Made by a program: the position numbers and the translations under genes. From Patescibacteria group bacterium (lineage in GTDB: Bacteria > Patescibacteriota > Patescibacteriia > UBA10025), in contig JBHPFX010000003.1 of NCBI GenBank assembly GCA_042570925.1, positions 10,149-74,148 of the forward strand: a stretch of DNA of 64,000 nt. The letters are read 5' to 3'. A model generated the notes under the pieces. It searched no databases. It was given only the letters and a program-made list of their open reading frames with translations, and was not told the origin of the DNA. This document shows positions 1,900 through 60,189 of this stretch, one piece after another. The stretch's first letter is position 1. Each line of letters opens with the position of its first letter.

Positions 1900-2385
1900 A
1901 TGTCGAATCGTCATCTTGCTCGAACGATCGCGATGCAATCACTCTATGAGTGGGACTTTAATAAGCTTGCACCCGAAAAGGCTCAGGAGCTTGTCAGTCG
2001 CAACATCAATGATTTTGCGGCGGATTTTGACGACAACGGATTTTCTGAAAGGGTAGTAAAAGGAGTCATCAACCATCTCGATGAGATTAATGGCCTCATT
2101 AGCACGTACGCGCCGGAGTGGCCGCTTGATCAAATTACTGTCGTTGACCGAAATGTTCTGCGAATCGGAATATTTGAACTCCGATTTTCCGGAGGAGAAA
2201 TACCTCCAAAGGTTGCCATTAATGAAGCGATCGAGTTGGCCAAGACATTTGGCGGCGAGTCATCAGGTAAATTCGTCAACGGCGTGCTCGGTACGATCTA
2301 TAAAGAAATGTTGAAAAAAGGTGAGGCAGTAATTACAGAAGAAAAGTCTGATCAGAAAAAAAGCCCGGAGGGGAAAAAATCATAA
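1900..2385 (+). CDS. nusB: Transcription antitermination factor NusB
   Basis: N-terminus [17 protein letters not shown], then [13 protein letters not shown] and [12 protein letters not shown], the NusB family signature. Confidence 0.85.
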
Positions 2386-2412
2386 ATTCACAAGCAGAAT
2401 TACAGACTTTCA

Positions 2413-3102
2413 ATGAAAGATTTTTCTCATCTTGAACAAAAACTTGGAATCACATTTTCAAATAAAGACCTTCTCAAACAGTCGATGGTCCATCGTTCGT
2501 ATATTAACGAACATCCGAAATTTAATCTTGATAATAATGAACGGCTCGAATTTCTTGGTGATGCGGTTCTCGAGCTGGTGGTAACCGAATATCTCTATCA
2601 AACATACCCAAATCCCGAAGGCGAGCTGACAAACTGGCGCGCCAGCTTAGTCAATGCAAAAATGCTCGCCGAACTTGCCAGGACGTTTGATCTGGATCAC
2701 TATCTTTTCTTAAGTCGGGGGGAGCAAAAAGATAAAAAAAGCAAAGCGCGCGCATTCATTCTTGCGGACGCGTTTGAAGCACTCATAGGATCCATGTATC
2801 TCGATCAGGGATGGGAAGTAACGCGCGACTTTATCACCAAACACATTATGACGCATCTCAAAGTCATTCTGGAGAACCATTTATATCAGGATCCTAAGAG
2901 CAAGTTTCAAGAAGCCGCACAGGACAAGACGGGCGTCACACCGAGTTATCGGGTTCTTCATGAATCCGGTCCTGATCATGCACGTAAGTTTCGCATTGGC
3001 GTCTTCATCAGTGAAGAGTTAATTGCTGAGGGAGAAGGAATGTCAAAGCAAGAAGCTCAGGTGCGGGCGGCAGAGCGGGCACTAGAGGTTAAGGATTGGT
3101 AG
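2413..3102 (+). CDS. rnc: Ribonuclease III
   Basis: ERLEFLGDAVLELVVTEYLY catalytic signature plus a C-terminal dsRBD (GPDHARKF..GEGMSKQEAQVRAAERAL). Confidence 0.9.
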   Translation: MKDFSHLEQKLGITFSNKDLLKQSMVHRSYINEHPKFNLDNNERLEFLGDAVLELVVTEYLYQTYPNPEGELTNWRASLVNAKMLAELARTFDLDHYLFLSRGEQKDKKSKARAFILADAFEALIGSMYLDQGWEVTRDFITKHIMTHLKVILENHLYQDPKSKFQEAAQDKTGVTPSYRVLHESGPDHARKFRIGVFISEELIAEGEGMSKQEAQVRAAERALEVKDW

Positions 3103-3239: not shown

Positions 3240-4535
3240 ATGAGCAATTTTTTCGTGCTCGAAGAAGGAGGTCGCGGACATGCAATTGTGAGGGCCCTTC
3301 TCAACGGATCAGGTGACAACCGTATCACCTGCATTCCAGGTAATCCCGGCATCGATTGTCATCCTGATGTCATATGTCGGGATATGAGAATCTCACAGCA
3401 CACCGCGATCGCTACAATAGCAAAAGCTCAGCAGGCAATTACGTTTGTTGGGCCCGAAGGACCTCTCGTAGGAGGCATTGTTAAACCGTTCGATGCGATA
3501 GGTGCGCCGATAATCGGCCCCGGTGATGACGCTACCTGGCTCGAAGGCAGCAAGGCAAGGTGCTGTGATTTTCTCAGTGGTGCGGGAATACCTGTCCCAC
3601 CGTACGGGGTGTTTACCGATGTCACGGCAGCTACGAACCATATTGGAGCTTCAAGTGGTCCGTGGGTGATCAAAGCCGATGGACTGTGCGGCGGCAAGGG
3701 AGTTGTGATTGCTCTGGAATCTGGTATGGCACTCGCGACTATCAACAACTTCATGTCAGGCGATAGGTTCGACGATGCAGGTAAGACCATCGTCATTCAG
3801 GAATGCGTGACCGGCCGGGAAGTCAGTATATTGGCATTTGTCGATGGTGAGACGGTTCTACCGATGACAACATCAATGGATCACAAGCCGGTTTTTGAAA
3901 ACGATCGAGGCCCAATGACCGGTGGTATGGGCGCGGTTGCACCGGTACCGTTCGTGACAGCCGAGCTGTATGACCTGATCTTACAGACGATCGTTCGTCC
4001 GACCGTGGCTGCTCTCGTGCAAAAAGGAATTCACTATCGCGGTGTCATTTACTTCGGTCTTATGATCACCAGTACTGGCCCAGTCGTACTGGAAATCAAC
4101 ATTCGCTTCGGTGATCCGGAGGCGCAGGTGGTATTGCCGCTTCTCAAGACTCCTCTGGATGAGATTTTCCAGGCGATGGCTGCTGGCGAACTCAGCCGGA
4201 TCGGGGATCTCGAATGGCATCCAGGATTTGCCTGCTGCGTCGTGATGGCCGCTGAGGGTTATCCAGGTAAGCCAGTTGTTGGCGATGAGATTACTGGACT
4301 CGGCGCAGATGGCCAACTTATCAATCGGCTGGGTGAACACGAAATCTTCGTGTATCATTCCGGCACCAGCCGCCAACGGTGCCAGTGGAGAACGAAAAGC
4401 GGACGAGTTCTCGGAGTCTGCTGTACAGCGCGATTGCTTGGTATGGCGATCAAGGGCGCCTATGCTGGCGCTGGCCAAATCGAGTGGCGCGGAATGCATT
4501 ATCGCCATGACATTGGATCCAAGGCATCCAGGTAG
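3240..4535 (+). CDS. purD: Phosphoribosylamine--glycine ligase (GAR synthetase), in a G+C-rich island
   Basis: GGRGHA, GPEGPLVGGIV, LEGSKA, VIKADGLCGGKGVVIA, TGGMGA, FGDPEAQ, VVMAAEGYPG and GRVLGV are collinear with PurD. A GGAGG SD precedes the ATG. Confidence 0.85.
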   Translation: MSNFFVLEEGGRGHAIVRALLNGSGDNRITCIPGNPGIDCHPDVICRDMRISQHTAIATIAKAQQAITFVGPEGPLVGGIVKPFDAIGAPIIGPGDDATWLEGSKARCCDFLSGAGIPVPPYGVFTDVTAATNHIGASSGPWVIKADGLCGGKGVVIALESGMALATINNFMSGDRFDDAGKTIVIQECVTGREVSILAFVDGETVLPMTTSMDHKPVFENDRGPMTGGMGAVAPVPFVTAELYDLILQTIVRPTVAALVQKGIHYRGVIYFGLMITSTGPVVLEINIRFGDPEAQVVLPLLKTPLDEIFQAMAAGELSRIGDLEWHPGFACCVVMAAEGYPGKPVVGDEITGLGADGQLINRLGEHEIFVYHSGTSRQRCQWRTKSGRVLGVCCTARLLGMAIKGAYAGAGQIEWRGMHYRHDIGSKASR

Positions 4536-20123: not shown

Positions 20124-21615
<1,492 letters not shown>

Positions 21616-21889
21616 CTAGGGAGTAAATCTAGATCGCTGACACTTTAGTGTCAGTGAACTGTCGCGTGAAACTCATCTCTTTATTACGTAAAGAGAGATG
21701 TCTCACTTAGGTGCAGTGAACCTGCATATACGATATGACTAACGTGTGAGCTAATTCTTACCACATCAAAGTTGCATAATGACTTACTGCCTACCATATA
21801 TACAGGTTACGCCTTCCCCCTCTTGTTCTTCGGATGTCGAGGCGGTAAACTGTGAGTTGTAGGCTTTTTTCATATTTATTATTCATTCA

Positions 21890-21965
21890 GGGCACGTAGC
21901 TCAGTTGGTTATCCCTCGCTATAGCTCGGGACTTAGGAGCGCTTACTGTACTTTACAGAATTCCC
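21890..21965 (+). pseudogene. 5' part of a second, diverged tRNA-Ile-like copy (outer copy)
   Basis: GGGCACGTAGCTCAGTTGGTTA (acceptor plus D arm), then an insert and a degenerate GAGCGC..anticodon region. Its acceptor partner CGTGCCC is at 22202-22208. Confidence 0.5.
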
Positions 21966-21970
21966 TTGGT

Positions 21971-22047
21971 GGGCGCGTAGCTCAGGTGGTTAGAGCGCGT
22001 CACTGATAATGACGAGGTCGGAGGTTCGAGTCCTCCCGCGCCCACCA
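21971..22047 (+). tRNA. tRNA-Ile (anticodon GAU), CCA encoded
   Basis: GGGCGCG acceptor, CTGATAA anticodon loop, GGTTCGAGTCC T arm, CGCGCCC-A-CCA. Full cloverleaf. Confidence 0.9.
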
Positions 22048-22123
22048 AGGGAATGAAGTGTACCCGACTTTCATGTGAGGTCACTGACCCGTCCTGAGTC
22101 CTGAGCGAAGTCGAAGGACGAAG

Positions 22124-22212
22124 GATAATGACGAGCTCGGCCTTCAGCTCTGAGGCCTGAACGGCTCAGAGCTCAGGCTCGAAGAGAGGTTCAAATCCTC
22201 CCGTGCCCACCA
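22124..22212 (+). pseudogene. 3' part of the outer tRNA-Ile-like copy, with a roughly 50-nt G+C-rich insert in the variable region
   Basis: GATAATGACGAG, then the insert (22136-22187), then GGTTCAAATCCTCCCGTGCCCACCA. Confidence 0.5.
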
Positions 22213-22248
22213 GTGGGCTGATATAGGGTTCTCCGTACGGCGGACAGG

Positions 22249-22292
22249 TAATGACGAGGTCGCCCCGCTATGGCGGGGCCGTGTGCCCACCA
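22249..22292 (+). pseudogene. Further tRNA-Ile 3'-half fragment in which a G+C hairpin replaces the T arm
   Basis: TAATGACGAGGTCG + CCCCGCTATGGCGGGG + CCGTGTGCCCACCA. Confidence 0.45.
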
Positions 22293-22345
22293 GCCGAGGT
22301 AGCCTGTCTGCCGATAGGCAGGCTCAGTAGTAGAGTCCCGCACCA
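22293..22345 (+). pseudogene. 5' part of a second tRNA-Phe-like copy (outer copy) with a hairpin insert in the D arm
   Basis: GCCGAGG-TA-G, then the insert CCTGTCTGCCGATAGGCAG, then GCTCAGTAGTAGAG. Its acceptor partner CCTCGGC is at 22563-22569. Confidence 0.45.
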
Positions 22346-22365
22346 TGTGCCTGGAGGTATATAAT

Positions 22366-22437
22366 GCCTGGGTAGCTCAGTGGTAGAGCGAAGGACTGAA
22401 AATCCTTGCGTCGGCAGTTCAATTCTGCCCCCAGGCA
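22366..22437 (+). tRNA. tRNA-Phe (anticodon GAA)
   Basis: GCCTGGG acceptor, GCTCAGTGGTAGAGC D arm, CTGAAAA loop, GGCAGTTCAATTCTGCC T arm, CCCAGGC-A. Confidence 0.9.
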
Positions 22438-22440
22438 CAT

Positions 22441-22573
22441 GTGCGGGATAGACTCTGGACTGAAAAATCCTGGAGCCTGTCCTGAACATTGCGCGGAGCG
22501 AAATGATTCAGGATCGGCAGTTTCCGCCAAAGGCGGATCCGCCCATGGCGGACAATTCTGCCCCTCGGCACCA
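22441..22573 (+). pseudogene. 3' part of the outer tRNA-Phe-like copy, with a 30-nt double-hairpin insert in the T loop
   Basis: GGACTGAAAAATCC anticodon arm, then GGCAG-TT, the 30-nt insert (22523-22552), then CAATTCTGCC-CCTCGGC-A-CCA. Confidence 0.5.
22523..22552. repeat. 30-nt G+C-rich double-hairpin insert (copy in the tRNA-Phe-like T loop)
   Basis: TCCGCCAAAGGCGGATCCGCCCATGGCGGA. The near-identical TCCGCCAGAGGCGGATCCGCCTTCGGCGGA lies at 42719-42748 inside nusA. Confidence 0.7.
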
Positions 22574-22658
22574 CGCGGCAGTAGTTTCCTTCATTTCATT
22601 CAGGACAGGCAGTTGGTAGTATGGTTTCAAAAAACTTTTAGATAATTTATTGGATAAT

Positions 22659-22733
22659 GCGGGAGTAGTTCAGTAGTAGAACGCTTCCTTGCCAAGGAAG
22701 AGGTCGCGGGTGCGAATCCCGTCTCCCGCTCCA
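22659..22733 (+). tRNA. tRNA-Gly (anticodon GCC), CCA encoded
   Basis: GCGGGAG acceptor, TTGCCAA loop, CTCCCGC-T-CCA. The T loop reads TGCGAAT, with G where U55 is expected. Confidence 0.75.
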
Positions 22734-22875
22734 TCAAGTCTTAAAGAAAAACATTCCTAGATTGATTTGCATGCTTAGCAAATTAAGCAGGAGGAAGCGA
22801 CGCAACTGCTTGCGTCGCGTCGGGATGAACAGGGCGAACGATGTCGCCTGAGGCGACCGTGAGCTTCGGCCCGAA

Positions 22876-22899
22876 GGGCGAGTCCGGTCTGCCGCTCCA
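22876..22899 (+). pseudogene. Duplicated tRNA-Gly(GCC) 3'-end fragment
   Basis: GGGCGAGTCCGGTCTGCCGCTCCA versus the tRNA GGGTGCGAATCCCGTCTCCCGCTCCA. G+C hairpins precede it. Confidence 0.45.
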
Positions 22900-23029
22900 T
22901 CGTGCCATATGTATATAGACCCCAAGATGGTGGGAGTTTGTTATAATAAATAAAGACGAGGCCGCCGTGGTGGAACCCCGCTTCTCCTTCACTGCGTTCA
23001 GGATACGCGGGGCAGGCTGGTAGAATTGT

Positions 23030-23113
23030 GGGCCAGTGGCGGAACTGGTATACGCGCTAGACTTAAAATCTGGTGGTGGCAACACCGTGTGGGTTCGACT
23101 CCCACCTGGCCCA
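23030..23113 (+). tRNA. tRNA-Leu (anticodon UAA), long variable arm
   Basis: GGGCCAG acceptor, CTTAAAA loop, GGTGGCAACACC variable arm, GTGGGTTCGACTCCCAC T arm, CTGGCCC-A. Confidence 0.85.
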
Positions 23114-23220
23114 TTAGCAAGAATAAGACTCTCGAAGCGAAGTCCTGAGCGTAGCGAAGGGCGAAGCGGAGATCCCGTCCTGAGTTTACCGAAGGACGGG
23201 ACGACCGGCGGCATATGACA

Positions 23221-23250
23221 AAAAGAGCGAGGTAGTTACTCGCTCTTTTT
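23221..23250. terminator. Bidirectional terminator between the tRNA array and the convergent gene
   Basis: AAAAAGAGCGAG-GTAGTTA-CTCGCTCTTTTT. Confidence 0.7.
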
Positions 23251-23265
23251 GCTTTGTCATTATAT

Positions 23266-23760
23266 TTAGAGGACTTCCAGTGTAGTATATCGCGCTCCCC
23301 ATTCAATTGCTTCTTCTCGTGACTCCATCCAGATGTCTGCCATGTACCAGTAGCGCTGATGCATCCGATCTTCGACGACGAATATTTTATCTCCGTAGTA
23401 TTCAGGAATTCGTACTCGAGTGCCAATTGGTAGGAAGTTGGCAGCGATAATTCCATCACGTACAGTGGACCCGGAAGCAGTTATGAATGGGTCTCCGCTT
23501 GTTTGATCCGGTGTTGAGGAGTAGGCAGTGATTGTGAGATACACAGTCTGCTTAGCTTCCTCACGGGGCTTATCAGCACTAATAGGAAGCCTCGGGCGGG
23601 TTTCAATATTTTCTTCAGTGATTGTTGGTTCAGCTTGAATGTTTCCTGTTTCAAGGATTTCATGACCCACTGCTTGTCCAGGAAAGGTGAATTCCCAGAG
23701 AAGGACGAGCGCAACGATTACTAGAATGTAGGCATTTTTTTGACGAGATAGTTTATACAT
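23266..23760 (-). CDS. 3D-domain (RlpA/MltA-like DPBB) cell-wall protein with N-terminal anchor
   Basis: TAYSSTPDQTSGDPFITASG..V.DGIIAAN.LPIGTRVRIP..G.....VEDR. ATG 23760 (MYKLSRQKNAY plus a TM segment) is preferred over the track start. Confidence 0.7.
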   Translation of the reverse strand: MYKLSRQKNAYILVIVALVLLWEFTFPGQAVGHEILETGNIQAEPTITEENIETRPRLPISADKPREEAKQTVYLTITAYSSTPDQTSGDPFITASGSTVRDGIIAANFLPIGTRVRIPEYYGDKIFVVEDRMHQRYWYMADIWMESREEAIEWGARYTTLEVL

Positions 23761-28968: not shown

Positions 28969-28979
28969 TGGAGCGGGTA
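28969..28979 (-). pseudogene. Duplicated 3' end of tRNA-Gly(UCC), followed by a G+C-rich tract
   Basis: TGGAGCGGGTA is identical to the tRNA 3' end at 29161-29171. G+C-rich hairpins lie between the two (28980-29100). Confidence 0.45.
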
Positions 28980-29039
28980 GGACCCCGCTATCCAGCGGGA
29001 TCTCGCAATTATATTTCTTATTGAGCTCGAGAATCGAGT

Positions 29040-29085
29040 TCTGGGCGCCCTTCGGTCTGAGGACCTCAGGATCGAAGACTTCGTT
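29040..29085. repeat. G+C-rich palindromic element copy
   Basis: CCCTTCGGTCTGAGGACCTCAGGATCGAAGACTTCG, related to the 18241-18317 core. Confidence 0.45.
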
Positions 29086-29160
29086 CACTCGCGCCGTTCA
29101 ATTCCAGGTATTGTATGTGTAAATCGATGCTCACAAGTTTGAAAGTGAAATCGAACTATT

Positions 29161-29235
29161 TGGAGCGGGTAACGGGAATCGAACCCGTATCTTCAGGTTG
29201 GAAACCTGACATAATAGCCATTATACTATACCCGC
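29161..29235 (-). tRNA. tRNA-Gly (anticodon UCC), CCA encoded
   Basis: The reverse complement reads GCGGGTA..TTTCCAA..ACGGGTTCGATTCCCGT-TACCCGC-T-CCA. Same architecture as E. coli tRNA-Gly2. Confidence 0.9.
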
Positions 29236-31477: not shown

Positions 31478-31560
31478 TCGGGATGCCCGGACTCGCCCTG
31501 CGGGCCTGGGTGCTGCGCTCGCTCGCACCTCTCGAGTCAAATCTCCCAACCTAAACTCAA
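31478..31560 (-). pseudogene. tRNA-Pro 3'-half copy with a G+C-rich insert at the T loop
   Basis: In RNA sense: TTGGGAG..CTCGAGAGGT, the insert GCGAGCGAGCGCAGCACCCAGGCCCGCAGGG, then CGAGTCCGGGCATCCCGA. Confidence 0.5.
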
Positions 31561-31596
31561 TCTTGAATAACTGGATTATGTTGTACTTTTGAAAAA

Positions 31597-31634
31597 TCGG
31601 GATGCCCGGACTCGAACCGGGGACCTCTCGCTCC
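31597..31634 (-). pseudogene. Exact copy of the tRNA-Pro 3' half (38 nt)
   Basis: TCGGGATGCCCGGACTCGAACCGGGGACCTCTCGCTCC is identical to 31683-31720. Confidence 0.6.
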
Positions 31635-31682
31635 TGTTCAGCCCGAGCCACATAATAGCCAATAAAATAATCCTGCGCTGAG

Positions 31683-31756
31683 TCGGGATGCCCGGACTCG
31701 AACCGGGGACCTCTCGCTCCCAAAGCGAGCGTTCTAGCCAACTGAACTACATCCCG
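31683..31756 (-). tRNA. tRNA-Pro (anticodon UGG)
   Basis: The reverse complement reads CGGGATG-TA-GTTCAGTTGGCTAGAAC-G-CTCGC-TTTGGGA-GCGAG..CCCGGTTCGAGTCCGGG-CATCCCG-A. Confidence 0.9.
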
Positions 31757-31812
31757 ACTCAGAGCGAGATTTTTTAGTATGATATTAAGATTCTTAATGT
31801 TCACAGCGAGGG

Positions 31813-31849
31813 CCAAAGCGAGCGTTCTAGCCAACTGAACTACATTCCG
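31813..31849 (-). pseudogene. Copy of the tRNA-Pro 5' half
   Basis: CCAAAGCGAGCGTTCTAGCCAACTGAACTACAT is identical to 31721-31753, then diverges. Confidence 0.55.
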
Positions 31850-31851
31850 CG

Positions 31852-31925
31852 TGGAGGCCACGGGCGGAATCGTTTCCGGGGCGCTTCGCACGCTTGCGCC
31901 CTTCGATTCCTAACCTTCCAAGCCT
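31852..31925 (-). pseudogene. tRNA-Cys 3'-end copy interrupted by a G+C hairpin
   Basis: TGGAGGCCACGGGCGGAATCG is identical to 31964-31984. It is followed by the GGGCGC..GCGCCC hairpin insert and a T-loop remnant. Confidence 0.5.
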
Positions 31926-47117: not shown

Positions 47118-49358
47118 TTACGAACGTCTTCGTGGAATCGGGCGACGTGATTGAGATCCACCGGATCGGTGATCTCGGCGTGGTCGCTGAGGGCGTCTGG
47201 ATTGTGCCGATCGTTCAAAATTTTCTGTAAGTGCTTTAACTGAAAGTGCAAGACGATTTTTCTCCTTATCAATATCAACAACCTTTACTTTTAATGTATT
47301 ACCAACTTGCGTTTTATCAGTTACCCTGTCTATTCGTTCCGGAGAGAATTCTGAAATATGAACCATACCATCTCTGCCGGGAAGAATTTCAACAATTGCA
47401 CCAATCTCACCCCCACTCATATCCGTAACAATCTTTACAACCTTTCCTTCATAGATTTCGCCAATTTTTATCTCTTTTGTAAGATCTTCAATCCACTTCT
47501 TTGCTTTATCAGACATTTCAGAATTATTAGAGGTGACTGAGATAGTACCGTCATCCTCAATGTCAATTTTGATCACATCTGCGCCGCCGCATTCTTCAAT
47601 GATCTTGTTAATCATTTCGCCGCCTTTTCCAATCACAGTGCGAATTTTATCAGGATCAACTTTAATCGCAGTAATTCTCGGAGCGTACGGGGAAAGTTCT
47701 TTACGCGGCTCTGCAAGTGCCTGACTCATATTATCAAGAATTTTTTTACGCGCTATCTTTGCTGCTTCAAGCGTTTCGTCAAGAATGCGCGGAGAAATGC
47801 CATGAAGTTTTGTGTCCATTTGCATGGCGGTAATTCCTTTAGTCGTGCCGGCCACTTTAAAATCCATATCGCCATTATGATCTTCGACTCCCTGAATATC
47901 GGTGAGGATCATGTATTTGGATGCATCATTTTCATCACTTACCAATCCCATAGCAATGCCGGCAACTGGGGAGGATATCGGTACCGCAGCATCCATGAGC
48001 GCAAGGCTCGAACCGCATATCGACGCTTGTGAAGTAGAGCCGTTTGAAGCGAGCACTTCCGATACTACTCGAATAGTGTAGGGAAATTTATCTTGTTCCG
48101 GGAGGACGGGAACCAATGCTTTTTCTGCAAGTGCGCCATGACCAATTTCCCGTCTTCCGGCACCTCGAAGCGGTTTTACTTCTCCAACGGAGAAACCCGG
48201 GAAATTATAGTGGTGCATGTATTTCTTTGTTCCTGATAATTCCATCGTATCCAAGAATTGCTCTTCACCCGGAGAACCAAGCGTAACTACTGATAAAATC
48301 TGCGTTTCTCCCCTTTGAAACAGGCCTGATCCGTGTGTACGGGGTAAAATGCCGGCTTCAGAGGCAAGTGTCCGGATTTCGTCTGTTTTTCTTCCATCAA
48401 CGCGCTTTCCTTGCTCGAGAAGCAGTGTCCGGGCTCTTTTTTCATACATTTCCTGAATAAGTTCAAGTGCTTTTATTCGTTCATCTTTTGACACTTCATT
48501 ATCTTCCTTAAGTATAGCGTCAAGTTCAGTCTGAATGTCGGCAAGTCCTCCACTAAGCTCTTTTTTATCTCTTGGCTGTTGAAGGAGTGCGTCGAGCTTT
48601 GGAATGCTCAAGTTTTCAATTTTTGCTTTTACAGCTTCAGAAACTTTCTCAGGTATCTCAATAGTAATTTTCTCCAGTCCAACGCTGTCTTTTACTTCAT
48701 TGATAAGCTCAATGATCGGCTTGATGTTTTCATGGCCGAACTGGATTGCCTGTTTCATTACCTCTTCCTCAATTTCATTACCTCCGGCTTCGATCATGAT
48801 TATTTTATCATCGTTCCCACATACTACGAGATCGAGATCGCTTTTTTCCCGTGCTTCGTAAGTGGGATTCAAAATCCATTTTCCATCAATGCGGCCGACG
48901 CGTGTTCCGGCTACCGGTCCGTTCCAAGGAATTGGAGATATCATCAAAGCAGCTGACGCGGCAATGACTGAAAGAATATCTGCGTCATTTTCCTGATCAC
49001 TCGAGAGTACCGTCAATACAACCTGCACATCACGACGCATTCGTTCGTCGAATAATGGGCGGATAGTCCTGTCAACGAGCCTTGAAGTAAGAATTGCTTC
49101 GTCTGAAGGTCGGCCTTCACGTTTTATAAAGCGAGAACCTTTTATCTTACCTGCGGCATACAGCCGTTCCTCATAATCAACAAGCAACGGGAAGTAGTCC
49201 ACCCCTTCTCTCTCGGTATTCCCGATGACTGCCGTAGCTAAAACAACCGTTCCGTTATACTGAACGGTACAAGCCCCATGTGCCTGTCCGGCAAAGCGCC
49301 CTGTCTCAATAATTAACTTTTTTCCACCGACTTCTGTTTCGAACGTCTTACGTTCCAT
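47118..49358 (-). CDS. pnp: Polyribonucleotide nucleotidyltransferase (PNPase)
   Basis: Two RNase PH domains (GRFAGQAHGA; REIGHG.LAE.A), KH (VIGKGGEMINKI) and S1 (GEIYEGKVVKI) domains. Confidence 0.92.
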   Translation of the reverse strand: MERKTFETEVGGKKLIIETGRFAGQAHGACTVQYNGTVVLATAVIGNTEREGVDYFPLLVDYEERLYAAGKIKGSRFIKREGRPSDEAILTSRLVDRTIRPLFDERMRRDVQVVLTVLSSDQENDADILSVIAASAALMISPIPWNGPVAGTRVGRIDGKWILNPTYEAREKSDLDLVVCGNDDKIIMIEAGGNEIEEEVMKQAIQFGHENIKPIIELINEVKDSVGLEKITIEIPEKVSEAVKAKIENLSIPKLDALLQQPRDKKELSGGLADIQTELDAILKEDNEVSKDERIKALELIQEMYEKRARTLLLEQGKRVDGRKTDEIRTLASEAGILPRTHGSGLFQRGETQILSVVTLGSPGEEQFLDTMELSGTKKYMHHYNFPGFSVGEVKPLRGAGRREIGHGALAEKALVPVLPEQDKFPYTIRVVSEVLASNGSTSQASICGSSLALMDAAVPISSPVAGIAMGLVSDENDASKYMILTDIQGVEDHNGDMDFKVAGTTKGITAMQMDTKLHGISPRILDETLEAAKIARKKILDNMSQALAEPRKELSPYAPRITAIKVDPDKIRTVIGKGGEMINKIIEECGGADVIKIDIEDDGTISVTSNNSEMSDKAKKWIEDLTKEIKIGEIYEGKVVKIVTDMSGGEIGAIVEILPGRDGMVHISEFSPERIDRVTDKTQVGNTLKVKVVDIDKEKNRLALSVKALTENFERSAQSRRPQRPRRDHRSGGSQSRRPIPRRRS

Positions 49359-49463: not shown

Positions 49464-50000
49464 TTAGTTATTAGTTTTTTTAGTAAATGCTTTTTTAATT
49501 GGATTTTTTAATAAGAGGTAATTTTTTTTATCTTTGCTTAAATCCATGAATTCATCAGCTTCTTCGATAATTTTGTGCGATGATGATTCGCCAAAAGCCA
49601 GCACCTCAATGTAGTGGCCGTGATTTCGTACATATTCTATCAATGGAGCATAGTCACCGTCTCCACTCACCAGCACAATCACATCCAGCTTATTAGAAAG
49701 TCGGATGATATCCATTGCGATACCGACGTCCCAGTCAGCTTTTTTCATTCCTGAGGCAAAAATCTGCAAGTTCTTCATTTTGACTTCAAAGCCCTGCATT
49801 GATAACGCTTCAAAAAATTTCTGTTCCTCGGGATTATTCGCTCGAACGACGTAGGCAATGGCGCGTATCAGTTTTCTATCCGATACAGCTTTTTTTAGAA
49901 TATTGCCAAAATTTACCTTTGCGCCGTACAGGTTTTTTGCAGAGTAGTACATGTTTTGTACGTCCACAAATACCCCTACTCGCTGTTCAACGTGTTTCAT
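49464..50000 (-). CDS. NYN-domain (LabA-like) putative ribonuclease
   Basis: VGVFVDVQNMYY, KADWDVGIAMDI and VLVSGDGDYAPL motifs. Confidence 0.7.
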   Translation of the reverse strand: MKHVEQRVGVFVDVQNMYYSAKNLYGAKVNFGNILKKAVSDRKLIRAIAYVVRANNPEEQKFFEALSMQGFEVKMKNLQIFASGMKKADWDVGIAMDIIRLSNKLDVIVLVSGDGDYAPLIEYVRNHGHYIEVLAFGESSSHKIIEEADEFMDLSKDKKNYLLLKNPIKKAFTKKTNN

Positions 50001-50554: not shown

Positions 50555-51487
50555 ATGCCCTCAAAACTCCAAAATTATATTACACAGTATCTCGAGTATC
50601 TTGAGATAGAAAAAAACAAATCCCCTTTAACTGTAAGGAATTATGAATTTTATCTGCGAAGATTCCTTACATGGGGCCAATTAAAAAATCCGGAAGACAT
50701 CACGCTTGAGAAAGTACGACAGTATCGCCTGTTTCTCAACCGTCTTAAAAGCCAGCGAAAAGAATTCGTAAAAAAATCAACGCAAAATTATCATCTCATT
50801 GCCCTTCGATCGTTTTTAAAATATTTAGCGCGTAATGATGTAACAACACTTGCTCCTGAGAAAATTGAACTTGCAAAGATCTCCGAACGCCAAGTTTCAT
50901 TTCTTGAAGGAGATGATCTGGAGCGTTTTCTCGAAGCTCCGTTGAAATCAAAAGAGTCAGAAATTATTCAGCAGCGTGATAAAGCACTTTTAGAACTACT
51001 ATTTTCTACTGGATTGCGTGTATCAGAGCTCGCCTCCTTACAACGCGATTCGATCAATCTTACAAAGGATGAATTCACCGTGCGCGGAAAAGGCGGAAAA
51101 CTACGAGTGGTTTTTCTTTCAAACCAATCGAAGCATTGGATAAAAAAATATCTGGCGACACGGAAAGATGATGCTTCACCACTTTTTTTACGACATGACC
51201 GGGCAGCAGCTTCTGAAAAAGATCCGAAATCAATTACCTCAAGGTCCATTCAGCGAATAGTTGAAAGTTATGCAAAGCAGGCAGGCATTACAAAAAAAGT
51301 CACCCCGCATACACTGCGCCACAGTTATGCGACTGATCTTCTCATGAACGGAGCTGATATTCGCTCGGTACAATCAATGCTCGGGCATGCCTCAATTACT
51401 ACCACACAGATTTATACTCATATAACTAATCAGCAGCTGCGAGACGTGTATAAGGCGTTTCATGCTCGAAGAAGAAAAAAGGAATGA
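50555..51487 (+). CDS. Tyrosine site-specific recombinase (XerC/XerD-like)
   Basis: N-terminal SAM-like domain (YLEYLEIEKN.SPLTV.NY). Catalytic R (GLRVSEL), HTLRHSYAT, GH and the TQIYTH tyrosine. Confidence 0.85.
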   Translation: MPSKLQNYITQYLEYLEIEKNKSPLTVRNYEFYLRRFLTWGQLKNPEDITLEKVRQYRLFLNRLKSQRKEFVKKSTQNYHLIALRSFLKYLARNDVTTLAPEKIELAKISERQVSFLEGDDLERFLEAPLKSKESEIIQQRDKALLELLFSTGLRVSELASLQRDSINLTKDEFTVRGKGGKLRVVFLSNQSKHWIKKYLATRKDDASPLFLRHDRAAASEKDPKSITSRSIQRIVESYAKQAGITKKVTPHTLRHSYATDLLMNGADIRSVQSMLGHASITTTQIYTHITNQQLRDVYKAFHARRRKKE

Positions 51488-51647
51488 TTTGACGAATGTG
51501 ACGTTTGTCCTATACTGATTAGCCAATTTCTTCTACAATTCAACATATTATGCGCCCATAGTTTTCCTCGCATGCGCTCGGAACTTTCAGCCCTCCGCTG
51601 CGCTCAGGACAGGCAACGGATAGAAAAATTGCTTGAACTCCCCTGGT

Positions 51648-51722
51648 GCCCCTGTAGTTCAACGGATAGAACGGTGGCCTTCTAAGCCTCAGATCGAGGT
51701 TCGATTCCTCGCGGGGGCACCA
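51648..51722 (+). tRNA. tRNA-Arg (anticodon UCU), CCA encoded
   Basis: GCCCCTG acceptor, GTTCAACGGATAGAAC D arm, CTTCTAA loop, CGAGGTTCGATTCCTCG T arm, CGGGGGC-A-CCA. One U-U mismatch in the anticodon stem. Confidence 0.8.
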
Positions 51723-51734
51723 GGGGAGTAAATC

Positions 51735-51812
51735 GCATTCGATTCTCGAAGTATAAACGGAAACCCTGAGGATGACACGAAATGTCATGCCGAAGGGCTG
51801 GTGGGCGCACCA
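51735..51812 (+). pseudogene. Degenerate tRNA-Arg 3' fragment split by an insert
   Basis: GCATTCGATTCTCG (T-arm-like), a roughly 50-nt insert, then GGTGGGCGCACCA. Confidence 0.4.
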
Positions 51813-52809: not shown

Positions 52810-53032
52810 AAAGCTGACATTCGTGGTGGCTATGGGTCGAGGCAATAAGTGAAGCTGAATGCTTCACGCATGCCGAGACGGGCGAAGCGTTGTCCCGAGT
52901 AATCGAGGGACCGTGAAGCCCCGGAGTAGTGGTAGCATCCTTCGACTTCGCTCAGGACATTGCAGAGGCCTGCCGAAGGTCCCGCTCGCCAAAGCCTCGA
53001 AAGACAATTAATTACTGAAAGGGATGTGCGGG

Positions 53033-53104
53033 GGTGACTATGGTGTAGTGGTAGCACAGGGGCCTGTGAAGCCCTTAGCTCGGGTTCAAATCCCGATAGT
53101 CACC
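53033..53104 (+). tRNA. tRNA-His (anticodon GUG) with encoded G-1
   Basis: G-1 + GTGACTA acceptor, GTGTAGTGGTAGCAC D arm, CTGTGAA loop, TCGGGTTCAAATCCCGA T arm, TAGTCAC-C. No CCA encoded. Confidence 0.85.
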
Positions 53105-53210
53105 CCCGCCCACCTCTTTTGTGATTTTTTTGAATTTACTTGCGTGCTTTGGCGGGCAGGGATGACCTGCTCTGAGCGTGGCCCGCCGTAGGCGGGAGAA
53201 GCCGAAGAGA

Positions 53211-53363
53211 GCCTTTAGCTCGGGTTCGAGCCCCGATAGCGACCTTTTTCTCTGAGCATTGTGTTCGAAGAAAAAGGAAAAAACATCTCCTATTCATTGT
53301 GAGGTGTTTTTGGTTCCAGAAAAGAGGTATACTATATTTAGATAATCATTAGAATAAATATGT
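53211..53363 (+). repeat. Composite intergenic element, copy 1 (starts with a long tRNA-His 3'-half-like segment)
   Basis: GCCTTTAGCTCGGGTTCGAGCCCCGATAGCGACC, hairpin 53243-53277, terminator CATCTCC..GAGGTG plus T run, then the GGTATACT promoter. Confidence 0.7.
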
Positions 53364-54743
53364 ATGATTAATCAAAGAGGATTCATTAGTGCAACATTGG
53401 TTGTCATTATTGTAGTGCTCGCAGTTTTTATGGTTGGAGTTGCTTGGTATTATGAGGAGAATAAGGAAGAAATCAGTTCGGAGACAGTAAATACTCCGAT
53501 TAATTCGAATAGCAATATTAATTCATCAATACTTCATAATACTAATTCGATAGCTTCGAATGAACTTTTTCCGAAAGTGGCATATTTAGATTCAGGTAAT
53601 ATATATTCATTAAGTTTGTCATATGCAGACGTACAACTACTTGTTTCAAATGCAACGCCAATCATTGAATACGATATTTCTGATAATGGTCAGCATATTA
53701 TATATCTTGTAGCTAGCGATAATGAAAGCGAGATACATTATTATAACGTTTTGGATGAAAATGATTCCGTAGTATTGAAGGAAACAAATGTTTATTATCA
53801 TAGTATTGCGTTGTCGCCAGATAATACAAAAATTGCATATGCAAAAAAGAATTTCAACAGCTCAGTGAATAAATTTCTTAATCAAGCAATTTATGTAAGC
53901 GACCTTAATGGTAATGATGAGAACAAAATAGTAGATATTGGAAAGACTGAGGATGAAGTTAGTGAATATTACGGTAATGATGTCTGTGAATGGTCAAATG
54001 ACTCCAATCTTATTGGGCTTGAAAAGTGGTCCCCAGAGAGTGATTATTTAGTTTATTATATAAATGATAACTATGAATGTAGTGGTCCAGGGCATTCAAT
54101 AATACACATTACTGATTTGAATGGTAATGAAAGCTTTTTTGATGAACATTTGCCAAATCCAGGGACATATATATTTAATGAAGAAGAAAGGGAGTGGAGC
54201 GCTGCGGATATTTTTTGGCAGACTTTTTCTTCGGATAATGGTGACTTTATTCTTAAACAGCGAGCAGGTATGCCCTTTGTAAATAGTAGAGTAGTATTTG
54301 TCAAGGATGGTGAGGTGGTATCCGCATTTAATACTGTTGATTACCAAGATGACGAATATCAAAATAATACCCAAAGGCTTAGATCACACTATGAATATGG
54401 ATTTGACGTAGTTGGATGGGATGAAAGAATTAGTTATTTTGGGGGTAGGGCAGGTGAACCTGGTACTAATGAAGTGATAAAGACAAACATTGCCGGAGGA
54501 AATATTATTCAGTTAACCAATACTGAGGATGATTTGGCATTTACTCACCCAATAGTAATTGATGATGAGTATGTACTTTTTAGAAGGTATAATATAGATC
54601 CAGTTACTAATCAATACGGAAATACGTCTAGTTCTAAATCAGATACGTATGATATTTTAGTAAAGAATGTTGAAAATAATGAAGAAACTATTATTACTGA
54701 GGGGGCAGCTTTTAATCTGTTGAAGATTTACAGGTTGGAATGA
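53364..54743 (+). CDS. Pilin-signal-like anchored surface protein, family member 1 (C-terminal TolB/beta-propeller-like repeats)
   Basis: MINQRGFISATLVVIIVVLAVFMVGVAWYYEENKEE, an Asn/Ser-rich linker, then repeats such as DISDNGQHIIYL and IALSPDNTKIAYA. Confidence 0.6.
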   Translation: MINQRGFISATLVVIIVVLAVFMVGVAWYYEENKEEISSETVNTPINSNSNINSSILHNTNSIASNELFPKVAYLDSGNIYSLSLSYADVQLLVSNATPIIEYDISDNGQHIIYLVASDNESEIHYYNVLDENDSVVLKETNVYYHSIALSPDNTKIAYAKKNFNSSVNKFLNQAIYVSDLNGNDENKIVDIGKTEDEVSEYYGNDVCEWSNDSNLIGLEKWSPESDYLVYYINDNYECSGPGHSIIHITDLNGNESFFDEHLPNPGTYIFNEEEREWSAADIFWQTFSSDNGDFILKQRAGMPFVNSRVVFVKDGEVVSAFNTVDYQDDEYQNNTQRLRSHYEYGFDVVGWDERISYFGGRAGEPGTNEVIKTNIAGGNIIQLTNTEDDLAFTHPIVIDDEYVLFRRYNIDPVTNQYGNTSSSKSDTYDILVKNVENNEETIITEGAAFNLLKIYRLE

Positions 54744-54792
54744 TTGTTACTTTTTTTGGGTTGATTTGATCATATTGAATCGCTTAGATAGG

Positions 54793-54987
54793 TTTGACAT
54801 ATACCCAAAATCACCAAAAACTCCCATAAGATTAGTTAAAATAACGTACCGATAGCCACCTTTTTCTCTGAGTATTAGATTCGGAGCAAAAGGAAAAGAC
54901 ATCTTCCCCACACCATATAATGGTGTGTGGGAGAGGTGTTTTTGTTAGAGAAATGGTATAATGAATATATAAAATTAATATAATAAA
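54793..54987 (+). repeat. Composite intergenic element, copy 2
   Basis: Box A, CCGATAGCCACC, hairpin 54859-54893, long terminator hairpin 54898-54943, TGGTATAAT extended -10. Confidence 0.7.
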
Positions 54988-55701
54988 ATGCAAATAGCAG
55001 ATAATAAGAAGTTAAAAAAGCATCCCCTTGATTATGCGATAAAATCATCTCGTGTCATAGCCACAATTATCCTTTTTTATGGATTTATGATGGGCTTGGC
55101 AATTGGTTTTTTCGGTATCCCTCTAAACATTACCGTTTATGGTACATCAATTTCTGGATTTATTCCCTACCTTATCGCCATAGTAATAGCTGTAGCCTCA
55201 TTCATTTTATATCCAATATTATTAAAAAAGAAGTATCCTGGCATTAAAACAAATATATATACTATTGGAAAATTAAAAACGCACGTTGGATTATTAACCC
55301 TTATCGCAGGCGGAGCTGGTTTCGTCTTAGCATTATGGGCATATATTCTTCTTTTTATCAAAACATCAGATAATACCTCCATCAATGAATTTCTATATTA
55401 CCCAAACTATGCAACTAAAATTGCATTTATACCTATAATTGCCTCGGTTTATTTTTCTTTTCTTAAAAAAATAATATCTCACTCCCTAAAAGCAATCGAG
55501 CTTGTTTTTCTTGTTTTTTCTACAATCCTGTTAATTATGGTGGCTGCTTTCATTTCTTTTGTGGGCATCAGTAATTCAATGATTGAAAACTGGTGGTTAC
55601 TCATTCCTGACTTGATTGCCGGAGGCTCATCATATACTTTTGCTATGTTCTTTTTGCTAAAATTTAGGCCCACGGAAAATATACAGTCTTCAAGCACTTA
55701 A
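54988..55701 (+). CDS. Hypothetical multi-pass membrane protein
   Basis: Six or so hydrophobic segments. No motif. Confidence 0.5.
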   Translation: MQIADNKKLKKHPLDYAIKSSRVIATIILFYGFMMGLAIGFFGIPLNITVYGTSISGFIPYLIAIVIAVASFILYPILLKKKYPGIKTNIYTIGKLKTHVGLLTLIAGGAGFVLALWAYILLFIKTSDNTSINEFLYYPNYATKIAFIPIIASVYFSFLKKIISHSLKAIELVFLVFSTILLIMVAAFISFVGISNSMIENWWLLIPDLIAGGSSYTFAMFFLLKFRPTENIQSSST

Positions 55702-55780
55702 TAATTGGAGCACTAAAGTTCGAAAACTATCAAATTCAAACAATAAGAACTCTGAACAGTTATTCCTATTGAGCAATACT

Positions 55781-56791: not shown

Positions 56792-56825
56792 AGTTTATAT
56801 ATTTAGTAATCTAACATCCTTTATT

Positions 56826-57010
56826 AAGCTTACCATATACCCAAAATCCTCCAAAACCTTAACAAACTCAGACTTTTTAGTTAAACTAACCTTATCCCTC
56901 GACTCGTTCCACTTGCTCGGGACAGGCGGTAGCGACCTTTTTCTCTGAGCATTTAAGTTCGAAGAAAAAGGAAAAGACATCTCCCCTTATGAGGGAGGTG
57001 TTTTTGGTAT
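56826..57010 (+). repeat. Composite intergenic element, copy 3 (+ orientation between two minus-strand genes)
   Basis: Box A, a G+C tract, GGTAGCGACC, hairpin 56936-56971, terminator 56976-57005. Confidence 0.65.
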
Positions 57011-57013
57011 TAT

Positions 57014-57337
57014 TTATTCGCTACTCAACGCTACAATAATCAAAGTTATAAATGCAAGTACTATTAAAGAAAAATATATAGCAAGTCTACTAATAATTTT
57101 TCCTTTAGACGTATTTTTTTTAGTTTTATAAAGGCTGATAATACCTAGAACAAGAGGTATGAAAAAAGAGATTATAATTAAGTCTATTCGGAGAACTTCT
57201 GATATGTCCATCATAAACAAAATAAAGTTCGTTCCGGCAATTAGAAATAAAACAAAAGCAATAATTGCTAATTTGTTAAATTTCTTCTTTGGTTGTTCTG
57301 ACTGTGGCGCTGGTTGTTGTTTTGTTAGTTCTTCCAT
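57014..57337 (-). CDS. Hypothetical small 3-TM membrane protein
   Basis: Hydrophobic segments only. Confidence 0.45.
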   Translation of the reverse strand: MEELTKQQPAPQSEQPKKKFNKLAIIAFVLFLIAGTNFILFMMDISEVLRIDLIIISFFIPLVLGIISLYKTKKNTSKGKIISRLAIYFSLIVLAFITLIIVALSSE

Positions 57338-57370
57338 ATTTATATCTTTAGTGACTTAATCTCCTGCATT

Positions 57371-60147: not shown

Positions 60148-60189
60148 TACCACAATCTAGCTCAGTACTTGTTTACTTTCGTGTAGTAG

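Follow-up and report, generated by a model that had tools for sequence, protein, structure and literature searches.

Transfer RNA genes nested within older copies of themselves in a Patescibacteria genome and its relatives

In a 64,000-nucleotide stretch of DNA from a Patescibacteria group bacterium (GenBank assembly GCA_042570925.1, contig JBHPFX010000003.1, forward-strand positions 10,149 to 74,148; referred to here as the window), tRNA genes were found to lie inside the split remains of older copies of themselves. A first-pass annotation of this DNA had described two such loci, in which complete tRNA-Ile and tRNA-Phe genes are each nested between the 5′ and 3′ parts of a second, diverged copy. 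The phenomenon is much broader and more conserved than these two loci: the nested architecture is lineage-wide, involving most tRNAs of this genome and many Parcubacteria-type genomes of the candidate phyla radiation (CPR). In the Ile and Phe nests the inner gene is the functional one, and the outer halves, which together we call a shell, represent an older allele that is unable to make a tRNA. Our preferred explanation, to which we assign a probability of roughly 0.45, is that a replacement tRNA bearing a stalk (a helix of its leader and trailer) inserted into the resident gene, and that the halves of that gene have been kept within a co-transcribed structured precursor that would be processed probably by RNase III and RNase P.

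The window was read directly and run through a repeat finder, and tRNA genes were called with ARAGORN and Rfam. Each match between an outer and an inner copy was compared with 5000 shuffles of the flanking sequence. Loci of relatives and metagenome contigs were also fetched and are referred to by L-numbers; the relatives L001–L004, L017, L098 and L101–L103 were found by synteny and not by pattern, and a metagenome scan for two tRNA-Ile anticodon segments spaced 80–110 nt apart returned 61 stretches. Among species representatives, those most closely related are Parcubacteria/Buchananbacteria-type genomes. Rfam places a bacterial 16S rRNA gene at 20124–21615; it detected no 23S gene in the 64-kb window, and the 16S gene is not linked to one. 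An organellar or Rickettsiales source, considered on account of this unlinked 16S gene and the GC-rich hairpins, was rejected because a search of the TrmD neighbourhood pointed to Parcubacteria/Patescibacteria. The 16S gene is followed by tRNA-Ile, tRNA-Phe, tRNA-Gly(GCC) and tRNA-Leu(UAA) as called by ARAGORN, with a single terminator-like site (23219–23251) in the interval 21600–23300. The gene order TrmD, 16S, Ile, Phe is kept in relatives.

The inner tRNA-Ile(GAU) gene, with an encoded CCA, occupies 21971–22047 on the forward strand, like all features of the Ile and Phe loci. It is called by ARAGORN, scores 73 bits with the Rfam tRNA model and is identical to its L001 homologue at 77/77 positions. 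Both reading and the repeat finder place it between two parts of a second copy, as first described. The outer 5′ part, GGGCACGTAGCTCAGTTGGTTA (21890–21911; repeat D11), consists of the acceptor 5′ strand GGGCACG, the D-stem 5′ strand and the D loop, and matches inner positions 21971–21992 at 20/22 sites (0/5000 shuffles as good). Its D loop is interrupted by the hairpin TCCCTCGCTATAGCTCGGGA (21912–21931; palindrome I13), which is unique in the window; the same site of the Ile shell holds other hairpins in L001, L039, L059 and L086. Past this hairpin the outer copy continues at 21932–21959 as GAGCGC (21937–21942) and TTACTG (21943–21948) together with a small hairpin, CTGT..ACAG, and the motif GGAGCGCTTACTGT..ACAGAATTCCCTTGGT of this segment is also found in L001. 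Because the 5′ part runs on in this way, it overlaps the outer 3′ part, which restarts at GTCACTGA (22080–22087), identified by reading as the anticodon-stem 5′ strand and loop start. In L001 this segment runs into GATAATGACGAG, the anticodon and 3′ stem strand, without an insert; in the window GATAATGACGAG (22124–22135; repeat D2; 12/12 matches to the inner gene, 0/5000 shuffles as good) is preceded by an anticodon-loop hairpin (22088–22123) that is unique in the window, and is followed by a long hairpin (22136–22185; I6) in place of most of the variable region. Neither hairpin is present in L001, so both are later arrivals in the lineage of the window. The outer copy closes at 22186–22212 with the T arm, the acceptor 3′ strand CGTGCCC, an A and CCA (24/27 matches to the inner gene, 0/5000 shuffles as good). 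Its acceptor strands pair at 7/7 positions (with 21890–21896), and the resulting stem is one compensatory pair apart from the inner one, in agreement with the first-pass annotation. A third, degenerate tRNA-Ile 3′ fragment follows (22213–22292; repeat D2, 89%), containing two hairpins (22228–22245 and 22263–22278) and ending in ..GTGCCCACCA; a similar element follows the nests of L037/L090. Between 16S and the outer Ile copy, at about 21790–21870, there is also a long hairpin with a T-run, which is present in L001 as well.

The inner Ile gene sits on a stalk. Its leader strand, ATTCCCTTGGT (21960–21970; inverted repeat I3), is identical in L001 and pairs with the inner ACCA and the trailer, so that the acceptor stem is extended by a perfect 18-bp inverted repeat (21960–21977 with 22037–22054; I3). 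By reading, the stalk is an unbroken 18-bp helix, followed by a 15-nt side hairpin that faces a 1-nt bulge. Positions 22048–22079 hold the trailer strand AGGGAAT and what is left, in degenerate form, of the AAGCGCGCC..hairpin segment of relatives; here AAGTGTACC pairs by reading with GGAGCGCTT at 8/9 positions, two of them G-U.

The inner tRNA-Phe(GAA) gene (22366–22437; ARAGORN; Rfam 71.4 bits) has no encoded CCA and was likewise confirmed, by reading and the repeat finder, to be enclosed by parts of a second copy. The outer Phe gene is cut into five pieces within 22293–22573, namely GCCGAGGTAG (22293–22302), CTCAGTAGTAGAGT (22323–22336), ATAGACTCTGGACTGAAAAATCCTGGAGC (22448–22476), CGGCAGTT (22515–22522) and CAATTCTGCCCCTCGGCACCA (22553–22573). 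Shuffled flanks matched the D arm as well as the observed sequence did in 1/5000 cases, the anticodon arm in 8/5000 and the 3′ end in 0/5000. A D-stem hairpin (22303–22322) divides the 5′ part (22293–22336; repeat D8). The cassette that carries the inner gene then begins at 22337–22365 with CCCGCACCATGTG, a decoy 5′ acceptor strand GCCTGGAGG, and TATATAAT (I8; kept in L098), and ends with CATGTGCGGG (22438–22447; identical in L098), which is complementary to 22337–22349. The cassette is in this way bounded by terminal inverted repeats, CCCGCACCATGTG .. CACATGTGCGGG, and the arms of the Ile segment are complementary too. Through a 14-nt inverted repeat (93% complementary; I8), the 3′ end of the tRNA pairs with the upstream decoy of its 5′ acceptor strand. 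The outer copy resumes with a repeated TAGA and an anticodon arm having an 8-nt loop (22448–22476; 11/13 matches to the inner arm), followed by a hairpin in the variable region (22477–22514; repeats D4/D12 family). The last part (22515–22573; D17, I2) holds a T arm split by a double hairpin (22523–22537 and 22538–22552), the acceptor 3′ strand CCTCGGC, an A and CCA. As had been reported, the outer acceptor pairs at 7/7 positions and differs from the inner stem by two compensatory pairs. The double TCCGCC..GGCGGA hairpin after CAGTT is shared by the Phe shells of the window and L098 and by the Pro shell of L003.

The first-pass annotation took the retained acceptor pairing to mean that the outer copies are, or were, functional paralogs; the data do not support the view that they work as tRNAs or are spliced back into them. 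The outer copies cannot be ordinary tRNAs, whether spliced or unspliced, because detectors reject them and because their hand-spliced forms have defective anticodon arms. A search in intron mode, proposed earlier as a check, was run in ARAGORN at a relaxed threshold with intron ranges allowed, and Rfam was run at E ≤ 1; both returned the inner genes only. Each outer copy carries 3–4 inserts, in the D stem or loop, the anticodon loop, the variable region and the T loop, and each insert is either a hairpin of 15–50 nt or a tRNA. When the outer Ile copy was spliced by hand, only one of three joinings was accepted by ARAGORN at its default threshold, and there the anticodon stem pairs at 3/5 positions; the spliced form also has a shortened variable region. 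Hand-spliced outer Phe was accepted by ARAGORN with an 8-nt anticodon loop and a stem mismatch, and was read as having a 4-base anticodon. The shell of tRNA-Arg has no anticodon arm and that of tRNA-His is scrambled. No group I intron family was detected in the window at either the Rfam gathering score or E ≤ 1, no bulge-helix-bulge motif (3-nt bulges spaced by 4 bp) was found at the junctions by reading, and no splicing endonuclease or ligase was seen among the scanned open reading frames (ORFs) of the 64-kb window. Nor was a transfer-messenger RNA (tmRNA) called in the window by ARAGORN or Rfam (E ≤ 1). These results make it very improbable that the outer copies are working paralogs from which the inserts, including the inner tRNA, are removed and the exons rejoined. 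The paired acceptor stems, the encoded CCA, the intron-like combination of variable hairpins with conserved flanks and the one accepted Ile joining would be expected of such paralogs, but 3–4 excisions per molecule at non-homologous positions would be needed, the best splices are those with the defects just listed, and the anticodons are already covered by the inner set.

Comparison with orthologous loci, which had also been proposed, indicates where the two copies came from. The sole tRNA-Phe of L002, L003 and L017 has the outer Phe acceptor, GCCGAGG/CCTCGGC, and that of L001 and L004 has the inner one; for His, L102 and L103 have the outer acceptor in their functional gene. Because the outer acceptors are working alleles elsewhere, the compensatory differences separate two once-functional alleles. 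They do not record evolution after the interruption and give no sign of selection on the outer copy from then on. The suggestion that the interrupting segment carried a replacement tRNA, on the other hand, is supported, the inner copies being functional and the outer ones older alleles. The layers also appear to exchange sequence: the inner and outer Phe T stems have changed together (GGCAG/CTGCC in the window, GCCAG/CTGGC in L098), which indicates gene conversion between them.

All 9/9 tRNAs of the window are accompanied by fragments of themselves. Shells with both 5′ and 3′ parts surround six of the nine (Ile, Phe, Gly(GCC), Pro, Arg and His), Cys and Gly(UCC) have a 3′ fragment only, and Leu has a 5′ fragment only. 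The outer acceptor pairs at 7/7 positions for Ile, Phe, Gly(GCC) and Arg and at 6/7 for His and Pro. Directly after the Phe nest, the tRNA-Gly(GCC) nest (22575–22899, forward strand) runs from GCGGCAG (22575) through an inner gene at 22659–22733 to an outer 3′ end CTGCCGC-T-CCA (22899), and 62 nt of its 3′ shell are near-identical in L098. For tRNA-Leu(UAA) (22961–23114, forward strand; reading and ARAGORN), the gene at 23029–23114 is preceded by a 5′ fragment made of GCCGCCGTGGTGGAA, a hairpin and CAGGCTGGTAGA. tRNA-Gly(UCC) with its 3′ fragment lies at 28969–29235. On the reverse strand, a tRNA-Cys 3′ fragment (31870–31852) and the tRNA-Pro nest together span 31478–31870; the Pro nest (matches 15/16 and 16/16) has a 5′ part at 31849–31813, an inner gene at 31756–31682 and 3′ parts at 31633–31597 and 31494–31478, with a leader-trailer helix CTGAGT/ACTCAG. 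The tRNA-Arg(UCU) nest (51552–51812, forward strand) begins with GCGCCCA.. and ends with TGGGCGC-A-CCA, and its inner gene (51648–51722) stands on an 11-bp stalk, ACTCCCCTGGT/ACCAGGGGAGT. The tRNA-His nest (52825–53244, forward strand) extends from G-GTGGCTA to TAGCGAC-C around an inner gene at 53033–53107 with the stalk GTGCGGG/CCCGC(C)CAC.

Nests were also abundant among the fetched loci. Across all 91 tRNAs of these loci, 5′ copies were found upstream of 26 and 3′ copies downstream of 30, with only 2 and 2 on the wrong side. The Ile nest is present in L001 and L017, and the His nest in L101, L102 and L103. L098 has the same Phe cassette and a plain Ile gene, L001 has no Phe nest, and Ile and Phe are both plain in L002, L003 and L004. 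Since the nests are patchy among relatives, they have been both gained and lost. When the metagenome scan was combined with the window, L001 and L017, 45 tRNA-Ile rows had a second partial copy (38 distinct, seven being duplicates), and 24 of the 45 had a 5′ copy as well. These loci fall into two recurrent Ile architectures, with some multi-layer cases. In the second architecture (3′ shells of L048, L050, L051, L061, L065, L075, L084, L088, L092, L093 and L095), the inner tRNA is followed by (T)AGAGCG, a perfect hairpin of 7–13 bp whose sequence differs per genome, and then CTGATAATGACGAGGT; the hairpin occupies the expected place of the anticodon-stem 5′ strand. The 12-mer of this architecture was part of the search pattern, and its conservation is not independent evidence. 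Many of these nests begin directly after a TTTTYTGGTATATT box resembling an extended -10, and in other genomes extended -10-like boxes lie immediately upstream of the outer 5′ part. Other tRNAs are affected too: L086 has a tRNA-Val nest (about 2340–2830, minus strand) with the same 35-nt hairpin in both shells, and L002 has a tRNA-Gly(UCC) nest (3930–4140) with a perfect 13-bp leader-trailer helix.

These comparisons leave a negligible chance that the nests are an assembly artefact, that is, a collapse or chimera of two tRNA alleles. The window does come from a metagenome-assembled genome, and the contig of the close relative L097 breaks at the 16S gene. However, homologous nests occur in many independent assemblies from different samples and pipelines (L001, equal to L054, L064 and L077; L017; L098; L101–L103; and dozens of JGI/ENA contigs), and the inner and outer copies differ from each other and are joined by unique sequence.

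The stalk is a general property of nested genes. The acceptor stem is extended by 6–17 bp in 11 of 14 clearly nested tRNAs and by 0–1 bp in 39 of 44 plain ones, and such a helix is mostly missing from the outer copies. Stalk sequences differ among loci, with pairing retained. When 13 homologous Ile loci were aligned without gaps, six pairs of the extension showed changes in both partners in 5–7 sequences, and the mismatches include G-U but no A-C; as the 13 loci were selected for at least 7 paired extension positions, the percentage of paired positions is circular and only the diversity of pair types is informative. Judged from this diversity, the stalk covaries. Predicted minimum-energy RNA folds of the window Ile, window Phe and L001 Ile nests are fully nested (z = -7.0 to -8.1), with the outer acceptor stem at the base, followed by long-range helices, the stalk and the inner cloverleaf. 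With a tetraloop in place of the inner tRNA, 6 of 7 nests gave a sense strand whose fold was 6–15 kcal/mol more favourable than that of the antisense strand, a difference that is suggestive only.

Conservation of the shells was assessed on the Arg and His nests, because the contig of L097 (the relative with a 90% TrmD) ends at 16S and homologues of the gene on the other side of the Ile/Phe locus are not syntenic. The comparison used the close relative L101, in which the neighbouring GIDE-domain protein has 95% identity to its counterpart in the window and which covers the Arg 3′ shell and the entire His nest. With two hairpins excluded, the Arg and His shells are identical to L101 at 391/404 positions (96.8%), the Arg 3′ shell alone at 87/91. 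In two adjacent genes, by comparison, identity to L101 is 68–71% at codon position 3, 94.7% at position 1 and 98.2% at position 2, and ordinary intergenic DNA is 84–94% identical to L097, a relative from the same sample. By this alignment, neutral sites change far faster than the Arg and His shells. Spacers unlike the inner tRNA are among the conserved stretches, so gene conversion alone cannot explain the conservation. The excluded hairpins of the His 5′ shell (52850–52866 and 52892–52911) correspond to unrelated perfect hairpins in L101 (1194–1209 and 1243–1257), with 96–100% identity in the flanking shell; L101 also has an extra 48-nt insert with another tRNA-His D-loop fragment. In the more distant L102 and L103 the His nest has the same layout, a stalk that covaries and hairpins in corresponding places, with different sequences, and this architecture is retained across relatives whose neighbouring protein is only 54–66% identical. 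On the estimate from the Arg and His nests, then, the outer halves are under constraint. The earlier idea that the outer copies are processed in some unknown way holds to the extent that their halves are constrained and look like precursor structure; it does not hold for the making of a second tRNA.

Constraint would also be expected if the shells were RNAs in their own right, the two halves staying paired after excision of the inner tRNA through the outer acceptor stem and T arm as a two-piece, CCA-ended, tRNA-like RNA that could act as a decoy, an RNase P guide or a regulator. Such an RNA would fit the 7/7 acceptors with encoded CCA in Ile, Phe, Gly and Arg, even though the inner Phe gene has no CCA, as well as the intact outer T arms of Ile, His and Pro and a topology like that of the tRNA-like domain of tmRNA. 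It fits poorly with the T loops of outer Phe and other shells, which are split by hairpins, with the missing anticodon arm of the Arg shell, with the change of the His anticodon mimic from GTG to GCG in L101, and with the unpaired outer acceptor stems of several genomes. We regard this as improbable.

The shell hairpins are located at former tRNA loops and have a partly independent history. Of 11 hairpin types tested, eight are without a second copy in the window. Repetition there is limited to the TCCGCC..GGCGGA pair, and this pair, CCCCGC..GCGGGG and two others were loosely matched in other loci. A 34-nt hairpin starting with CCCGCACCATGT is common to the Ile shell of L001 and the Phe shell of L098, and the CCCGCACCATGT end of the window's Phe cassette is thus also found on hairpins of both relatives. 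The two copies, CCCGCACCATGTCACTKCGTTCCAGGTRCGGG, are near-identical and lie in D loops (L001 12929–12962; L098 13137–13170); the Phe cassette of the window (22337–22349) opens with the same 12 nt. These similarities suggest a family of small palindromic elements favouring tRNA shells. Treating all hairpins as one repeated mobile family was considered and rejected, as most are single-copy and the counts of GCGNAGC and CGAAGG are barely over chance. No backbone shared among the cassettes of different tRNAs was found beyond a CCCGCAC end in Phe, some Ile hairpins and the His stalk. A constant target-site duplication was not found at the junctions, where reading gave overlaps of TAGAG in Phe, 0–1 nt in Pro and 13 nt in Ile, and a gap in Arg. 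An origin by tandem duplication only, in which arm X is a copy of the outer leader and arm Y of the outer trailer, fits L003 Pro, L049 and L081 and fails for L001 and for the window's Ile, Phe and Arg nests.

The sequence of events that we favour would begin with a segment consisting of a tRNA gene between complementary arms, which inserted into a resident single-copy gene of the same identity. Survivors would be only those insertions that brought a working copy of the essential tRNA they disrupted, so that the identities of host and cargo always match. Repeated rounds, together with partial tandem duplications such as those in L003, L049 and L081, could then have built onion-like layers, and gene conversion from the inner copy would keep the tRNA-like segments of the shell similar. 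Shell and inner gene would be transcribed together from the promoter of the old gene, which in the window would be that of the 16S-Ile-Phe-Gly-Leu unit. The RNA is expected to fold as a long irregular stalk, comprising the outer acceptor stem, the X/Y helices, the leader-trailer helix and side hairpins, with the inner cloverleaf at its tip. The stalk may serve as a double-stranded processing stem cut by RNase III, like the stems flanking rRNAs, after which RNase P and 3′ trimming would complete the inner tRNA. The outer halves would persist as part of this fold and not through rejoining into a tRNA. The long, enclosing, covarying leader-trailer helix that typifies an RNase III processing stem is present. 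The window also encodes candidate processing enzymes for structured precursors, namely RNase III (2413–3102, forward strand, beside nusB at 1900–2385, forward strand), polynucleotide phosphorylase (PNPase; 47118–49358, reverse strand) and an adjacent NYN-domain nuclease (49464–50000, reverse strand), the latter two near the Arg and His nests. Such a route would suit a group of organisms with few ribonucleases; CPR bacteria have been reported to keep RNase III, RNase J and PNPase as core ribonucleases (PMC12641178).

Several observations weigh against this proposal. That shell and inner gene are co-transcribed, that RNase III cuts the stalk and what becomes of the shells are all matters of inference. 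The constraint estimate comes from one close pair and two nests (Arg and His), neither of them Ile or Phe, and localised recombination could mimic shell constraint; for the stalk, the selection of the 13 Ile loci limits what their pairing can say, as noted above. A decoy 5′ acceptor strand lies in the helix of the window Phe nest and of L017, L037, L083 and L098, where it would compete with correct folding and has the look of an accident at the DNA level, not of design. Bacterial RNase P should be impeded by a stalk in which the 3′ ACCA is paired with the leader. In L039, L051, L087 and the Gly shell of L098, the outer acceptor stems have decayed without compensatory changes. The Ile shell of the window has lost a hairpin kept by relatives and gained two others, so selection on any given shell is not uniform. 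The insertion junctions lack a consistent target-site duplication, and the shells of L003 Pro, L049 and L081 are plain tandem partial duplications, meaning that more than one process makes shells.

Much of this would be accommodated if the shells were inert relics of insertions, partial tandem duplications and small palindromic mobile elements, with no RNA role. Their apparent conservation would then come from gene conversion, recency or local recombination, and the helix would either be the terminal inverted repeat of a mobile cassette or have arisen by template switching at the palindrome of the acceptor stem. Relics of this kind would explain decoy strands that harm folding, the decayed acceptor stems, the simple duplications with a copied leader or trailer, and nests that come and go (L098 without an Ile nest, L001 without a Phe nest). 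The CCCGCACCATGT motif and 34-nt hairpin shared by L001 and L098, the recurrence of the TCCGCC..GGCGGA and CCCCGC..GCGGGG mini-hairpins across genomes, and the wholesale hairpin swaps between close relatives point the same way. On the other hand, inert DNA would hardly keep spacers that the inner copy cannot convert at 96.8% identity against 68–71% at third codon positions, or the architecture of the His nest across relatives with a 54–66% identical neighbouring protein. Useless short direct repeats should also be deleted fast from a reduced genome, the helix covaries among homologous loci with G-U and not A-C mismatches, and most hairpins are single-copy in the window. We consider it unlikely that the shells are inert, although this is the alternative that we take most seriously.

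A further source of partial tRNA genes is known in fragments carried by integrative elements (bioRxiv 10.1101/2022.07.05.498093). The shells could accordingly be attachment-site scars, left when tRNA-targeting elements that carried a partial tRNA copy decayed around a displaced host fragment. This is real for some 3′ fragments. It is favoured by those (Cys, the second one of Pro, L052, L071 and L081) that begin within the anticodon arm or T loop and duplicate the 3′ end of the inner gene, the pattern expected from tRNA-targeting integrases. It probably also holds for a low-GC block after tRNA-His (53300–64000; 33–35% against about 42% elsewhere), which is missing from L101 and resembles tandem insertions at the tRNA-His end. 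Within this block, a module that joins the His 3′ shell end CCGATAGGGACC to a hairpin and a terminator-like stem occurs three more times (about 58370–58530, 60200–60360 and 63540–63680), and there is also a heliorhodopsin gene (62688–63479, minus strand); no integrase was found when one was sought in the block. As an account of the nests themselves, scarring is quite improbable, since upstream 5′ fragments are as common as 3′ ones, the complementary arms around the inner gene and the shell conservation are left unexplained, and just 60–170 nt separate the copies, without ORFs, element DNA or an integrase. A tyrosine recombinase gene does lie at 50555–51487 (forward strand), with about 65 nt between it and the outer 5′ end of the tRNA-Arg nest downstream. 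Its synteny is the same in L102 and L103 and is found in relatives with different nest states, which makes a housekeeping Xer-type enzyme more probable than an element integrase. Elsewhere in the window, a 1-kb gap at 4.5–5.7 kb that was read for hidden structured RNA holds small ORFs with promoter-like and terminator-like sites.

The first-pass annotation knew of no bacterial arrangement like this, and full-text literature searches for nested tRNA genes in CPR bacteria likewise found no description. A paper on Patescibacteria tRNA introns covers group I introns only, and the preprint on tRNA gene fragments cited above covers products of integration and CRISPR. The nests fail the defining tests of group I intron tRNAs, archaeal spliced, split or permuted tRNAs, attachment-site repeats, multi-copy palindromic elements and tmRNA. 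With attachment-site fragments they share direct-orientation partial copies beside an intact gene, 3′ fragments from the anticodon arm or T loop and the possibility of several layers, and the typical 3′ direct repeat downstream of the intact gene was found for Ile, Phe, Pro, Cys, Gly and His. They differ in having equal upstream 5′ fragments, enclosure within 60–170 nt, complementary arms and conserved shells, and in lacking element DNA, usually with an integrase, between the repeats. Group I intron tRNAs occur in the same phylum and are also interrupted genes that annotation tools miss or misread, but those introns are self-splicing ribozymes of 200-plus nt in the anticodon loop, whereas nest inserts are short hairpins or a whole tRNA. 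Archaeal disrupted tRNAs (multiple-intron, split and permuted forms, and the pre-tRNA-Trp intron with its box C/D RNA) similarly have inserts in the D loop, variable region and T loop and can carry a functional RNA within a tRNA gene; unlike them, the nests are bacterial, have no bulge-helix-bulge, have exons that rebuild no valid tRNA, and carry as cargo the host's own tRNA.

The shell hairpins, in turn, recall repetitive extragenic palindromic (REP) sequences and REPINs, Correia and Rickettsia palindromic elements and rRNA intervening sequences. These too are short GC-rich hairpins inserted in structured-RNA and other genes, some hairpin types recur across genomes, and hairpins are replaced between close relatives. 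Nest hairpins, by contrast, are mostly single-copy, concentrate at former shell loops, and have no consistent target duplication or associated transposase. Terminal inverted repeats like those of REP sequences or miniature inverted-repeat transposable elements are present, and the many near-identical copies and constant target-site duplications of such elements are not. In tmRNA and engineered tRNA scaffolds, as in the nests, two RNA ends form a tRNA-like acceptor/T-arm frame and a large insert replaces the anticodon domain; the nests, however, have no tag reading frame, their insert is a complete tRNA, and their acceptor stems are those of Ile, Phe and other tRNAs, not tRNA-Ala-like. By analogy, the nests would work most like an rRNA-type leader-trailer processing stem, here enclosing a tRNA and built partly from its older copy. 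As in rRNA operons, the flanks pair in a long irregular covarying helix around a mature RNA, RNase III is encoded, and the Ile nest follows 16S; the differences are that the stem encloses a tRNA and is partly made of older tRNA halves, and that its cleavage is presumed.

Because tRNA finders report the inner genes only, hundreds of conserved nucleotides around most tRNAs go unannotated, and shells can pass for pseudogenes, integration sites or mis-assemblies. It is possible, and we propose it tentatively, that a CPR clade matures many of its tRNAs inside a scaffold of an older self-copy with RNase III-type release via the stalk, that the leftover two-piece, CCA-ended shell with its exchangeable loop hairpins is a functional RNA or a regulator of tRNA supply, and that the nests come from a new, self-rescuing mobile tRNA cassette. 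If such cassettes disrupt an essential single-copy gene and deliver its replacement at the same time, they would amount to selfish DNA that acts on tRNA genes. Should the stalk and shells serve maturation, they would show how tRNAs can be released from long transcripts with a minimal set of ribonucleases, and would be a natural counterpart of the engineered tRNA scaffold. The nests also offer a living model for the origin of interrupted, split or intron-bearing tRNA genes.

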